A stretch of 4,341 nt of DNA, from the IMG/VR virus record IMGVR_UViG_2602041905_000015; one strand, written 5' to 3'. Positions 266-4,341 of the stretch are shown here, in pieces. The notes under the pieces were generated by a model, which saw only the letters and a list, made by a program, of their open reading frames with translations, had not been told where the DNA came from and ran no database searches. Origin of the DNA: a virus (Duplodnaviria; Heunggongvirae; Uroviricota; Caudoviricetes). Position 1 is the stretch's first letter; each line of letters begins with the position of its first letter. The translations under genes were made by a program, and so were the position numbers.

Positions 266-2318
266 ACTGCTGGAGACGCAGACCGTGGATTTCAGCGTGG
301 GTGCTGAAGGGCTTCGCCATGTACCGGGCGATGTCATTGAAATCTGCGATGATGACTATGCCGGTATCAGCACCGGTGGTCGCGTGCTGGCGGTGAACAG
401 CCAGACCCGGACGCTGACGCTCGACCGTGAAATCACGCTGCCATCCTCCGGTACCACGCTGATAAGCCTGGTTGACGGTCAGGGTAATCCGGTCAGCGTG
501 GAGGTCCAGTCCGTCACCGACGGCGTGAAGGTGAAAGTGAGCCGTGTTCCTGACGGCGTTGCAGAATACAGCGTGTGGGGGCTGAAGCTGCCGACGCTGC
601 GCCAGCGCCTGTTCCGCTGCGTGAGTATCCGTGAGAACGATGACGGCACGTATGCCATCACCGCCGTGCAGCATGTACCGGAGAAAGAAGCCATCGTGGA
701 TAACGGGGCGCACTTTGACGGTGACCAGAGCGGCACGGTGAATGGTGTCACGCCGCCAGCAGTGCAGCACCTGACCGCCGAAGTCACTGCAGACAGCGGG
801 GAATATCAGGTGCTGGCGCGATGGGACACACCGAAGGTGGTGAAGGGCGTGAGCTTCCTGCTCCGTCTGACCGTAACAGCGGACGACGGCAGTGAGCGAC
901 TGGTCAGCACGGCCCGGACGACGGAAACCACATACCGCTTCACGCAACTGGCGCTGGGGAACTACAGGCTGACAGTCCGGGCGGTAAATGCCCGGGGGCA
1001 GCAGGGCGATCCGGCGTCGGTATCGTTCCGGATTGCCGCACCGGCAGCACCGTCGAGGATTGAGCTGACGCCGGGCTATTTTCAGATAACCGCCACGCCG
1101 CATCTTGCTGTTTATGACCCGACGGTACAGTTTGAGTTCTGGTTCTCGGAAAAGCGGATTACCGATATCAGGCAGGTTGAAACCACAGCCCGCTATCTTG
1201 GTACGGCGCTGTACTGGATAGCCGCCAGTATCAATATCAAACCGGGCCATGATTATTATTTTTACGTTCGCAGTGTGAACACCGTTGGCAAATCGGCATT
1301 CGTGGAGGCTGTCGGTCGGGCGAGCGATGATGCGGAAGGTTACCTGGATTTTTTCAAAGGAGAAATCGGGAAAACACATCTGGCCCAGGAGTTGTGGACG
1401 CAGATTGATAACGGTCAGCTTGCGCCGGACCTGGCTGAAATCAGGACGTCCATTACGAATGTCAGCAATGAAATCACGCAGACCGTCAATAAAAAACTGG
1501 AAGACCAGAGTGCGGCAATCCAGCAGATACAGAAAGTTCAGGTTGATACAAATAATAACCTGAACAGCATGTGGGCCGTGAAACTGCAGCAGATGAAGGA
1601 CGGACGCCTTTATATTGCGGGTATCGGAGCCGGTATTGAGAATACGCCAGCAGGTATGCAGAGTCAGGTGCTTCTGGCTGCTGACCGGATTGCGATGATT
1701 AATCCTGCGAATGGCAACACAAAGCCGATGTTTGTTGGTCAGGGCGATCAGATATTCATGAACGACGTGTTCCTGAAACGCCTGACGGCTCCGACCATTA
1801 CCAGCGGCGGTAATCCTCCGGCATTTTCCCTGACACCGGACGGGCGGCTGACGGCGAAAAATGCCGATATCAGCGGTAACGTGAATGCGAACTCCGGGAC
1901 GCTCAACAACNNNNNNNNNNNNNNNNNNNNAGCTTTCCCCCGGGACTCCCGTGCACCGGAACGGTGGCCATCAGGGACCATCACCGTCAGGGTTTATGAC
2001 GATCAGCCGTTTGACCGGCAGATTGTTATTCCGGCGGTGGCATTCAGCGGCGCTAAACATGAGCGGGAGAATAACGATATTTATTCGTCATGCCGCCTGA
2101 TAGTACGGAAAAACGGTGCTGAAATTTATAACCGTACCGCGCTGGATAATACGCTGATTTACAGTGGTGTTATTGATATGCCAGCTGGTCGCGGCCACAT
2201 GACGCTGGAGTTTTCGGTGTCAGCATGGCTGGTGAATAACTGGTATCCCACAGCAAGTATCAGCGATTTGCTGGTTGTGGTGATGAAGAAAGCCACCGCA
2301 GGCATCAGTATCAGCTGA
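266..2318 (+). CDS. J: Tail tip host-specificity protein J, C-terminal portion (5'-partial; interrupted by N-run 1911-1930)
   Basis: Continuous frame from 267 (ctg ctg gag acg cag = LLETQ) to TGA at 2316-2318, matching track ORF 285..2318. Translation (…[56 protein letters not shown]…, later …[39 protein letters not shown]…IDMPAGRG…) matches phage lambda gpJ as I recall it, including the fibronectin-III-like middle region. Frame is the same on both sides of the 20-N run. Followed by a hairpin plus T-run. Confidence 0.93.
1911..1930. other. N-run (20 nt) inside the J C-terminal region
   Basis: Twenty N between …NANSGTLNN and [16 protein letters not shown]…; the window-coordinate frame is preserved, so the true length must be 2 mod 3. 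Confidence 0.9.
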
Positions 2319-2337
2319 ATTTTATAACCCATATACG

Positions 2338-2361
2338 GGCGCCAGAAATGGCGCCTTTTTT
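2338..2361 (+). terminator. Rho-independent terminator-like hairpin downstream of J
   Basis: ggcgcc (2338-2343), loop agaaat, ggcgcc (2350-2355), then tttttt (2356-2361), starting 20 nt after the J stop codon. Confidence 0.6.
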
Positions 2362-2374
2362 ATTGCAGAAAAGC

Positions 2375-2380
2375 GAGAGG
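2375..2380 (+). promoter_or_regulatory. Shine-Dalgarno sequence for lom
   Basis: gagagg lies 5 nt upstream of the ATG at 2386. Confidence 0.6.
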
Positions 2381-2385
2381 TAATT

Positions 2386-2985
2386 ATGCGTAAAGTTTGT
2401 GCAGTCATTTTGTCCGCAGCCATCTGTCTGTCCGTATCCGGTGCGCCTGCATGGGCGTCTGAACATCAGTCCACACTGAGCGCGGGGTATCTTCATGCCC
2501 GTACGAACGCTCCCGGCAGCGATAATCTGAACGGGATTAACGTGAAATACCGTTATGAGTTTACGGACGCGCTGGGGCTGATTACGTCCTTCAGTTATGC
2601 CAATGCTGAGGATGAGCAAAAAACGCACTACAGCGATACCCGCTGGCATGAAGATTCCGTGCGTAACCGCTGGTTCAGCGTGATGGCGGGGCCGTCTGTA
2701 CGCGTGAATGAATGGTTCAGCGCGTATTCGATGGCGGGTGTGGCTTACAGCCGTGTGTCGACTTTCTCCGGGGATTATCTCCGCGTAACTGACAACAAGG
2801 GGAAAACGCACGATGTGCTGACCGGAAGTGATGACGGTCGCCACAGCAACACGTCTCTGGCGTGGGGGGCTGGCGTGCAGTTTAACCCGACCGAATCCGT
2901 GACCATTGACCTTGCTTATGAAGGTTCCGGTAGTGGCGACTGGCGAACGGATGCATTTATTGTTGGTATCGGATACCGTTTCTGA
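2386..2985 (+). CDS. lom: Outer membrane protein Lom (Ail/Lom/PagC-family 8-stranded beta-barrel), 199 aa
   Basis: ATG at 2386 with SD; TGA at 2983-2985. N-terminal signal peptide MRKVCAVILSAAICLSVSGAPAWA with an AWA-SE cleavage motif; C-terminus ends …IVGIGYRF with a terminal aromatic typical of OM beta-barrels. Sequence is near-identical to lambda Lom as I recall it. Position between J and stf matches lambda gene order. Confidence 0.93.
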   Translation: MRKVCAVILSAAICLSVSGAPAWASEHQSTLSAGYLHARTNAPGSDNLNGINVKYRYEFTDALGLITSFSYANAEDEQKTHYSDTRWHEDSVRNRWFSVMAGPSVRVNEWFSAYSMAGVAYSRVSTFSGDYLRVTDNKGKTHDVLTGSDDGRHSNTSLAWGAGVQFNPTESVTIDLAYEGSGSGDWRTDAFIVGIGYRF

Positions 2986-3090
2986 CAACAGACGCCGATT
3001 TATCTTCTGTAAATATTGTTATGATACGCAGGTTCATCCACTTTATGGGGTGAACTGCGTTTGAGGAAACGTAAAGTTACACTGTCCTGA

Positions 3091-3123
3091 AGCCCGTGGC
3101 GTCACTGCTGCGGGCTTTTTTTA
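3091..3123 (+). terminator. Rho-independent terminator-like hairpin downstream of lom
   Basis: agcccg (3091-3096) pairs with cgggct (3111-3116) across a 14-nt loop, followed by ttttttt (3117-3123). Confidence 0.55.
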
Positions 3124-3136
3124 TTGGTGGAAAAGT

Positions 3137-4341
3137 ATGACAGTAAAAATTTCTGGCGTGCTTAAAGATGGCACAGGAAAACCAGTACAGAACTGCACCA
3201 TTGTGCTGAAGGCCAGACGAACCAGCAGCACGGTGGTGGTGAACACGGTGGCCTCTGAAAATCCGGATGAAGCCGGACGTTACAGCATGGATGTTGAGCA
3301 TGGTCAGTACAGCGTCACCCTGCTGGTTGAAGGTTTTCCGCCTTCACATGCCGGGACCATTACCGTCTATGAAGGTTCCAGACCAGGTACGCTGAATGAT
3401 TTTCTCGGTGCCATGACGGAGGATGATGTCCGACCGGAGGCACTGCGCCGCTTTGAGCAGATGGTGGAAGAGGTGTCACGTAACGCCTCCGCGGTTGCAC
3501 AGAATACGGCAGCCGCGAAAAAATCAGCCAGCGATGCCAGTGCATCAGCCAGCGAGGCGGCAACTCATGCAACCGATGCTGCAGCCTCAGCACGTGCCGC
3601 CAGCACGTCAGCCGGACAGGCCGCGTCGTCGGCTCAGTCAGCGTCTTCCAGCGCAGGAACGGCATCGACAAAGGCCCGTGAAGCAGCAAAAAGTGCTGCT
3701 GCTGCAGAGTCATCAAAAAGCGCGGCAGCTACCAGCGCCAGTGCCGCGAAAACGTCAGAAACGAATGCCGCAGCGTCACAACAATCAGCAGCCACTTCTG
3801 CATCCACCGCGACCACGAAAGCGTCAGAAGCAGCCACTTCAGCACGGGATGCGTCGGCTTCAAAAGAGGCGGCAAAATCATCAGAAACGAACGCAGCCTC
3901 GAGCNNNNNNNNNNTCCTCGGCAACGGCGGCAGCAAATTCTGCGAAGGCGGCAAAAACGTCCGAGACGAACGCCAGGTCTTCTGAAACGGCAGCGGGACA
4001 GAGCGCCTCAGCTGCGGCAGACTCAAAAACAGCGGCTGCATTATCTGCCAGTGCCGCGTCAACAAGTGCCGGGCAGGCCTCAGCCAGTGCCACCGCCGCC
4101 GGAAAATCGGCAGAAAGTGCTGCATCGTCTGCTTCAACAGCCACAACGAAGGCTGGCGAAGCCGCTGTACAGGCCAGCGCAGCAGCGAGGTCTGCTTCCG
4201 CAGCGAAGACATCCAAGACGAACGCGAAAGCGTCGGAAACCAGCGCAGAATCCTCAAAAACGGCTGCCGCATCGTCCGCCAGTTCGGCGGCGTCATCGGC
4301 ATCATCTGCGTCTGCTTCAAAAGATGAGGCGACCAGACAGG
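3137..4341 (+). CDS. stf: Side tail fibre protein Stf, N-terminal portion (3'-partial at window end; N-run 3905-3914 with apparent frame change)
   Basis: ATG at 3137 preceded by ggtgg (3126-3130). Translation MTVKISGVLKDGTGKPVQNCTIVLKARR…GRYSMDVEHGQYSVTLLVEGFPPSHAGTITVYEGSRPGTLNDFL… matches the N-terminus of lambda Stf (orf-401) as I recall it. It continues into a long Ala/Ser/Thr-rich low-complexity region with recurring AAK[ST]SETNA motifs. After the N-run the coding frame continues in window frame 0 (tcc tcg gca acg… = SSATAAANSAKAAKTSETNARSSETAAGQ…) with no stop to the window end. The track's stop at 3985 comes from reading the pre-gap frame across a placeholder gap. Confidence 0.88.
3480..4341 (+). 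repeat. Degenerate periodic coding repeats (Ala/Ser-rich) within stf
   Basis: K[ST]S[EK]TNA motifs at 3749-3769, 3875-3895, 3954-3974 and 4206-4226. Spacing is 126 nt between the first two and 252 nt between the last two, giving a period of about 42 codons. Strong GCN/AGC/TCN codon bias. Confidence 0.7.
3905..3914. other. N-run (10 nt) inside the stf repeat region
   Basis: Ten N; the stf frame shifts from window frame 2 to frame 0 across it, so the true gap length must be 0 mod 3. Confidence 0.9.

Follow-up and report, generated by a model that had tools for sequence, protein, structure and literature searches.

Modular organization of the 3' part of a lambdoid J gene in a UTI89-type prophage of Escherichia coli

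The window analyzed here, a stretch of 4,341 nucleotides (nt) from a caudovirus (IMG/VR record IMGVR_UViG_2602041905_000015), carries the 3' part of a lambdoid gene J, the gene lom, and the 5' part of the side tail fiber gene stf, and it corresponds to a UTI89-type Escherichia coli prophage. A sequence-only reading of this window had taken the last 957 nt of J, positions 1362 to 2318, for a single receptor-specificity module joined at one junction to a lambda-like body. Our comparisons indicate instead that these 957 nt comprise two modules and a conserved island in which crossovers occur, with at least two junctions, and that the shaft and upper-fiber module assorts independently of the C-terminal receptor-binding domain (RBD) among phages. 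We consider it highly probable that the region as a whole forms the 3'-terminal third of a working lambdoid J and, relative to lambda, is a natural recombinant of interchangeable cassettes.

Source of the window and identity to lambda J along the gene

By megablast against complete E. coli genomes, the window was placed in a lambdoid prophage of strain UTI89 and of many related human isolates. Positions 266 to 1910 are 100% identical to the UTI89 chromosome (NC_007946), and positions 1931 to 4341 are the same as UTI89 except for one run of N (N-run). The window contains four N-runs, and its first 265 bases, described below, were excluded from analysis. The long open reading frame (ORF) of J (285-2318, + strand) contains all of the peptides quoted in the sequence-only reading. 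In UTI89 the corresponding protein, WP_000515773.1, is intact at 1159 codons and is annotated as gpJ in RefSeq. Its gene holds the gpJ position in a complete lambdoid tail module, annotated by RefSeq at UTI89 1422981-1435359 (tape measure, M, L, K, I, J, lom, stf, and tfa), of which lom and stf also fall inside the window. The N-run at 1911-1930 (20 N) replaces 83 nt of UTI89 that together with base 1931 make up 28 codons, in agreement with the roughly 28 hidden codons estimated earlier; the hidden peptide was read from UTI89.

UTI89 J (1159 aa) was aligned with lambda J of NC_001416 (1132 aa), and identity was scored in blocks of 40 residues. Over lambda residues 1-820 the amino acid identity is 92-100% per block and about 98% overall, with nucleotide identity of 0.90-0.99 and third-codon-position identity of 0.80-1.0; J is lambda-like up to about position 1361, just as had been proposed. 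Immediately after the motif GYLDFFKG (lambda residue 820, window position 1361) identity falls to 23% in the module that follows, where 28 residues absent from lambda account for alignment gaps of 21 and 7. This break at 1361/1362 is the sharpest in J, and the mosaic junction suspected there is genuine. Identity recovers to 80-97% at lambda residues 903-962, in the blocks that had been described as rejoining lambda, and it drops a second time to 33-53% from about lambda residue 975 to the C-terminus, where third-position identity is 0.14-0.6 and where a distinct tail had been predicted. Uniformly high identity to lambda J, which would have spoken against any mosaic junction, was not found in the blockwise alignment.

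The two breakpoints, one at lambda 820/821 and the other near lambda 975-1003, are sharp at the amino acid, nucleotide, and third-codon-position levels. Because these step changes are abrupt and include synonymous positions, the joints in J are best explained by recombination rather than by chance or drift. Two other accounts of the pattern were rejected: gradual divergence without recombination, as third-position identity collapses at the joints, and an artifact of the N-runs, as their flanks are identical to a finished genome.

Domain organization of the J 3' region

The features of J within the window are as follows.

266..1361, + strand: lambda-like part of J, comprising the end of the hub domains and two Ig/FNIII domains, to GYLDFFKG; 100% identical to UTI89 gpJ and 92-100% to lambda per block.
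1362..1583, + strand: long alpha-helical shaft (AHS), UTI89 J residues 821-894; 28 residues longer than the lambda shaft, to which it is 23% identical.
1584..1730, + strand: upper central straight fiber (CSF), a beta prism that travels with the shaft, assigned from module identities and Pfam.
1731..1910, + strand: conserved CSF island, lambda residues 916-975, probable crossover zone; 92% identical to lambda and 88-97% at the amino acid level in every J compared.
1911..1930, no strand: N-run over the neck (fiber to RBD) and the first part of the divergent module at the 3' end.
1932..2318, + strand: C-terminal Ig-like RBD, W-type, with the stop codon, assigned from Pfam (Ig_GpJ_C), AlphaFold2 (AF2), and Foldseek.

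The domain names AHS, CSF, and FNIII-2 are taken from PMC11101478, and "W-type" is a label coined here for the RBD class of the window. Pfam identified six families in UTI89 J at nearly full profile length (E 1e-31 to 3e-43), giving the full gpJ domain series of hub (Phage-tail_3, FNIII-A_GpJ), two Ig/FNIII domains, tail-tip fiber, and C-terminal RBD. Ig_J and Ig_J_second, the latter ending at residue 818, are followed by Phage_Tail_Tip at residues 872-1000 and by Ig_GpJ_C at 1029-1159 (E 2e-38, profile positions 1-135 of 135); no Pfam family covers shaft residues 819-871. The 1361/1362 junction coincides with the boundary between FNIII-2 and AHS. Modeled by AF2 from a single sequence, the shaft and prism region shows a long helix across the shaft, with predicted local distance difference test (pLDDT) values of 72-87 in the center only and a mean of 49. 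A canonical coiled coil was considered for the shaft and is not claimed, the heptad count being unconvincing. In lambda J, residues 841-861 change from helix to strand upon receptor binding (PMC11101478).

The AF2 model of the RBD (pLDDT 84.4, predicted template modeling score 0.78) is an eight-stranded sandwich. In Foldseek it matched four solved gpJ fiber entries at E 2e-13 to 7e-12 and nothing else below E 0.001: lambda gpJ (8XCK/8XCJ) at template modeling (TM) scores of 0.89-0.92 and 43% identity, and A8 gpJ (9WCB/9WCA) at TM 0.87-0.89 and 57-58% identity. The window RBD has the C-terminal Ig-like receptor-binding fold of 8XCK and 9WCA, and the structural comparison with lambda that had been suggested as a check gave the same fold at 43% sequence identity.

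Two small observations concern the conserved island. The abortive-infection nuclease HepS of Gifsy-1 is triggered by lambda J residues 902-933, with F924 (PMC13043305). The Phe matching F924 is conserved at window positions 1755-1757, so triggering of HepS is predicted for the window J; Gifsy-1 J itself has Ile at this position. At 1761-1782 UTI89 carries the lambda-like NDVFLKRL, in place of the NEVFLKYL of other W-type and phage-21 alleles, and this is a small conversion patch inside the island.

Shaft and receptor-binding modules in related phages

The C-terminal parts of J from phages 21, 434, PhiR70_1, 2G7b, PhiR55_1, VT1-Sakai, and cdtI were compared with the window module by module. When the flagged 957 nt served as the query, many phage records matched only bases 1-548 and others only bases 360-957. 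The long shaft of phages 21, PhiR70_1, PhiR55_1, and VT1-Sakai is 99% identical to that of the window, which is only 23% identical to the shaft of lambda, 434, and 2G7b. The upper prism at 1584-1730 follows the same division, with 94-98% identity to the long-shaft phages and 55-57% to lambda, 434, and 2G7b. The long shaft occurs with a W-type RBD in UTI89, VT1-Sakai, and PhiR55_1, with an A8/21-type RBD in phages 21 and PhiR70_1, and with a 434-type RBD in cdtI; the short lambda-type shaft occurs with the lambda RBD in lambda, the 434 RBD in 434, and a W-type RBD in 2G7b. Two types of shaft and four of RBD are thus seen in six combinations.

In the DNA before 1362, the window shows 96% identity to lambda, 434, and 2G7b and 78-80% to phages 21, PhiR70_1, and PhiR55_1; downstream the pattern is inverted, with 0-51% for the former group and 89-98% for the latter. 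This inversion identifies 1361/1362 as a joint at which a lambda-like body meets a phage-21-like shaft. The DNA of 2G7b changes from lambda-like to window-like at about window position 1768-1813, and phages with an A8/21-type RBD show 80-100% nucleotide identity to the window up to the N-run and 31-41% just past it, the drop across the gap itself being from 80-91%. Independent assortment of the two modules places the receptor-relevant junction, the one that bounds the RBD, in or adjoining the N-run at about 1911-1931 and not at 1362, and the conserved island probably acts as a patch of homology for crossovers. The fusion point of the chimeras of Brodel et al. (2024), lambda residue 964, lies inside this island (PMC11338833). 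The receptor-specificity swap that had been placed at 1362 is thus correct in that the RBD differs in class from that of lambda (43% identity), but position 1362 bounds the shaft, and the RBD is a separate module. Receptor choice concerns only the last ~130-155 residues of J.

RBD classes and candidate receptors

Over the equivalents of lambda residues 1004-1132, the RBD of the window is 56% identical to that of A8; its identity is 59% to phage 21, 43% to lambda, and 38% to 434. It is 96% identical to the VT1-Sakai, PhiR55_1, and 2G7b domains. The classes are discrete: W-type domains share 91% identity or more among themselves and no more than 65% with the nearest other class, so that the A8/PhiR70_1 class is the closest one characterized but forms a clearly separate cluster. 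Among PDB sequences the top match is "A8 gpJ 713" (E 1e-121, compared with E 1.7e-100 for lambda), and the A8 sequence used here was taken from the PDB alignment. A8 delivers DNA via OmpC (PMC11338833), and entry 9WCB is A8 gpJ bound to OmpC of EDL933. The RBD of PhiR70_1 is 100% identical to A8 and represents its natural donor class.

Differences between the window RBD and A8 cluster in the N-terminal loop (a 4-residue indel) and in loop 46-47 (a 6-residue indel), with further divergence in domain segments 66-78 and 98-102, while the DDQxFDRQ, NG, and DMPAG turns and the last 28 residues are conserved. The presumed receptor-contact loops are not conserved with the A8/PhiR70_1 class: identity to A8 is 29% in the N-terminal loop, 0% in loop 46-47, 33% in loop 71-73, and 80% in loop 101-115. 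Nor was similarity to loops L1-L4 of the LamB class found, the predicted loop segments being 0-27% identical to lambda except at the NG and DMPAG turns. Judged by strand order in the model, the variable loops would point to the receptor and the conserved turns to the prism, as expected if one face of the RBD binds and varies while the other relays the signal and stays constant.

Within the W-type class, otherwise 89-100% identical, nucleotide identity at window positions 2059-2085 is 74-78%. The peptide here is HERENNDIY in the window and HEREHTDIY or HEKEHTDIY in 2G7b, PhiR55_1, and VT1-Sakai, and it coincides with the loop bearing the 6-residue indel. This short segment is likely a hotspot of receptor-contact variation.

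The W-type RBD belongs to an allele class distinct from the lambda LamB-binding domain, to which it is 43% identical with the same Ig-like fold, and altered receptor use is therefore plausible. Since its closest solved relative is the OmpC-binding A8 gpJ, OmpC or another trimeric porin is the best guess at its receptor, and by this analogy the W-type RBD most likely recognizes one of these rather than LamB. We would give OmpC itself about an even chance; another trimeric porin, LamB included, is possible and clearly less probable, and something other than a trimeric porin is unlikely. Receptor data were also sought for the PhiR/mEp panel of temperate phages, for which the SNIPE paper gives only dependence on ManYZ. 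The hosts given in GenBank for W-type phages are E. coli C or ECOR13, not K-12: the host on record is E. coli C for PhiR55_1 and PhiR5_1 and ECOR13 for PhiR49_2, all of which carry the allele class of the window. Plaquing data for PhiR55.1 are given in PMC13190303. A second chimera from Eligo, 1A2, uses OmpC of EDL933 and not that of K-12 (PMC11338833). It is conceivable, if on balance doubtful, that the W-type RBD recognizes neither K-12-type OmpC nor LamB but, like 1A2, a restricted set of OmpC variants or else a different porin, and that the shaft cassettes are kept by selection unrelated to the receptor. Such selection may be escape from a J-sensing defense, in the way that HepS senses the adjacent island, or tuning of the ejection trigger.

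Frequency in E. coli

Module frequencies were counted in complete E. coli genomes (n = 5,426), and a genome was scored when a match spanned 80% or more of the query. The W-type RBD was found in 3,357 of these genomes, often in several copies each, the 434-type in 2,083, and the A8/21-type in 1,807. The lambda RBD was found in only 97, in every case at 99% identity or more, and the examples listed are mostly laboratory K-12 strains. The long shaft is present in 3,542 genomes and the short shaft in 2,621. The W-type is therefore the commonest form in E. coli prophages and lambda the unusual one, which reverses the framing of the window as a J that diverges from lambda. Protein homologues of the W-type RBD are almost all from Escherichia and Shigella, in a large protein search that returned mostly gene fragments and frameshifted calls and was used for taxon range and a shallow alignment only. 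The presence of this allele class in GenBank dates back to VT1-Sakai (AP000400).

Proposed arrangement and alternative explanations

In the arrangement that we favor, a lambda-like body, made up of the hub and two Ig/FNIII domains, is followed by three parts: a long alpha-helical shaft, 28 residues longer than that of lambda, with its cognate upper beta prism; a near-invariant beta-prism island supplying homology for crossovers; and a C-terminal Ig-like RBD of the W-type. Homology to the solved structures of lambda and A8 gpJ suggests that the J trimer inserts the variable loops of its three RBDs into a trimeric outer-membrane porin. The binding signal would be relayed from the conserved top of the RBD through the beta prism to the helical shaft, a route suggested by PMC11101478, and the shaft would then unfold and the tail tip open.

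Several points weigh against this reading. The annotation of VT1-Sakai splits J into two pieces "truncated by a mutation", which means that some copies are nonfunctional and that this common allele class also occurs in defective prophages. The shaft model is of low confidence (mean pLDDT 49) and is taken as weak support for helicity, and the one-phase heptad count in the shaft is weak (0.50 against a background of 0.37). Which loops are placed at the top and which at the bottom of the RBD was deduced from strand order in a monomer model. The receptor proposed for the W-type is drawn from homology, and with only 56-59% identity to the OmpC-binding A8/21 class and with the differences falling in likely contact loops, a different porin or a different range of OmpC variants is quite possible.

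The whole 957-nt region could also be a single receptor-specificity cassette, swapped as a unit at DFFKG. The break at 1361/1362 is indeed the sharpest in the gene, and the long shaft and W-type RBD do occur together in UTI89, VT1-Sakai, and PhiR55_1. However, 2G7b carries a W-type RBD (96%) behind a short lambda-type shaft, phages 21 and PhiR70_1 pair the long shaft (99%) with an A8/21-type RBD (56-59%), and cdtI pairs it with a 434-type RBD, while in the A8 chimera replacement of just the part of J beyond lambda 964 brings about a change of receptor (PMC11338833). A single cassette is accordingly very improbable. Somewhat less so, though still improbable, is that the W-type RBD continues to use LamB, with no change of host range relative to lambda. 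It has the same fold as the LamB-binding domain (TM 0.89-0.92), shares motifs with lambda only, such as WPSGT, and lacks the 6-residue loop insertion of the A8/21 class; moreover, no published receptor for the W-type class was found in the literature searched. The domain is nevertheless 43% identical to lambda as against 56-59% to the OmpC-binding A8/21 class, and its predicted loop segments match those of lambda at 0-27%. A few point mutations in the RBD alter which receptor lambda uses, and given this sensitivity a divergence of 57% is unlikely to preserve LamB use.

It could finally be argued that the divergence reflects a decaying gene of a cryptic prophage, or an assembly or masking artifact, rather than a functional allele. 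The four N-runs and scrambled first 265 bases of the window, the truncated annotation of VT1-Sakai J, and the many database matches that are fragments would all be in keeping with this. Yet outside the N-run the flagged bases are identical to a finished genome, where J reads through 1159 codons without interruption and the tail module around it is complete. Each of the six gpJ Pfam domains is present at full length, and the allele class is found in phage records that name a laboratory host. We regard decay or artifact as close to negligible, and a functional recombinant J built from interchangeable cassettes remains the explanation that we prefer.

Neighboring features and irregularities of the window

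Downstream of J the window contains the following features.

2337..2361, + strand: intrinsic-terminator-like hairpin after J, with an 8-bp stem of which 6 pairs are GC, followed by a T-run.
2386..2985, + strand: lom homologue (Ail/Lom outer-membrane beta-barrel), a 199-aa ORF annotated by RefSeq in UTI89.
3137..4341, + strand: 5' part of the side tail fiber gene stf (RefSeq annotation), which runs off the window.

Phages 21 and 434 have an annotated terminator at the site matching the hairpin. The UTI89 stf product is 1035 aa, is annotated by RefSeq as a "prophage tail fiber N-terminal domain-containing protein", and its gene shows 83.6% nucleotide identity to lambda orf-401. The N-run at 3905-3914 in stf masks 15 nt rather than 10, as window positions 1931-4341 span 2411 nt and the corresponding UTI89 segment 2416 nt; the surrounding sequence is a long low-complexity stretch rich in Ala, Ser, and Thr, with internal imperfect repeats.

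Positions 1-265 are colinear with no genome and are scrambled, and the reading frame of J is broken there. Bases 1-66 match UTI89 J and are followed by an A10 run, a 24-nt piece (76-99) from about 80 nt upstream, a further piece of J, an N-run at 164-173, a repeat of about positions 17-66 and beyond (174-255), and an N-run at 256-265; this looks like an assembly or masking artifact. Upstream of the window, UTI89 has a hypothetical ORF of 112 codons between the gpI homologue and J, where lambda has a gap of 60 nt, and this ORF is possibly an inserted accessory gene (moron).

Significance and comparison with known systems

Mosaicism of J and C-terminal chimeras at lambda 964 have been published, so that the finding reported here is real but already known. 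Thousands of RefSeq genomes already carry the gpJ annotation for this gene, and the exchange of J C-termini as modules is textbook material that has been exploited for engineered lambda particles; the scientific value of one more example is small. Of more practical interest, the receptor of the commonest J RBD in E. coli is a gap that could be filled cheaply, for the benefit of lambda-based delivery vectors and of prophage host-range prediction. Such prediction from J should cut the protein at the conserved island (about lambda 964-1003) and not at the first divergence from lambda.

Among characterized systems, J of the Salmonella phage Gifsy-1, an OmpC user (PMC12312913), shares the prism island with the window (46% over 206 residues); no similarity was detectable between Gifsy-1 J and the window RBD, and comparison with this known OmpC user is uninformative. 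Phage 434 J, also an OmpC user (lambda h434 hybrids), combines a lambda-type shaft with its own RBD, which is 38% identical to that of the window, and phage cdtI J has a long shaft like the window and an RBD of the 434-type. The same allele class as the window throughout the flagged region is found in J of VT1-Sakai (Sp15, AP000400, H0006), PhiR55_1, the PPompW prophages, Stx2a phages, and phage 204576. This group shows 94.7-96.7% nucleotide identity to the window, with 99% identity in the shaft and 96-100% amino acid identity in the RBD, and differs from it in small patches (NEVFLKYL for NDVFLKRL and HEREHTDIY for HERENNDIY).

Lambda gpJ (P03749; 8XCK closed, 8XCJ with LamB) has the same gene position and the same domain series as the window J, and it agrees with the latter at about 98% over residues 1-820, at 92% over the island (lambda 916-975), and in the Ig-like fold of the RBD (TM ~0.9). 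The two differ in the shaft, which in the window has 28 more residues and 23% identity to lambda, in the upper prism, at 57% identity, and in the RBD, at 43% identity with divergent loops. The best PDB match to the window by both sequence and fold is the A8 gpJ chimera (9WCA; 9WCB with EDL933 OmpC). Unlike the window J, A8 is an engineered chimera on the short shaft of lambda, and its RBD, 56% identical, is set apart by loop indels of 4 and 6 residues and by divergence in segments 66-78 and 98-102. It nevertheless matches the window at 82% in the neck and at 80-92% over the last 28 residues of the RBD, and its C-terminus is that of PhiR70_1 J; natural C-termini of this kind have been proven swappable at lambda 964 (PMC11338833).

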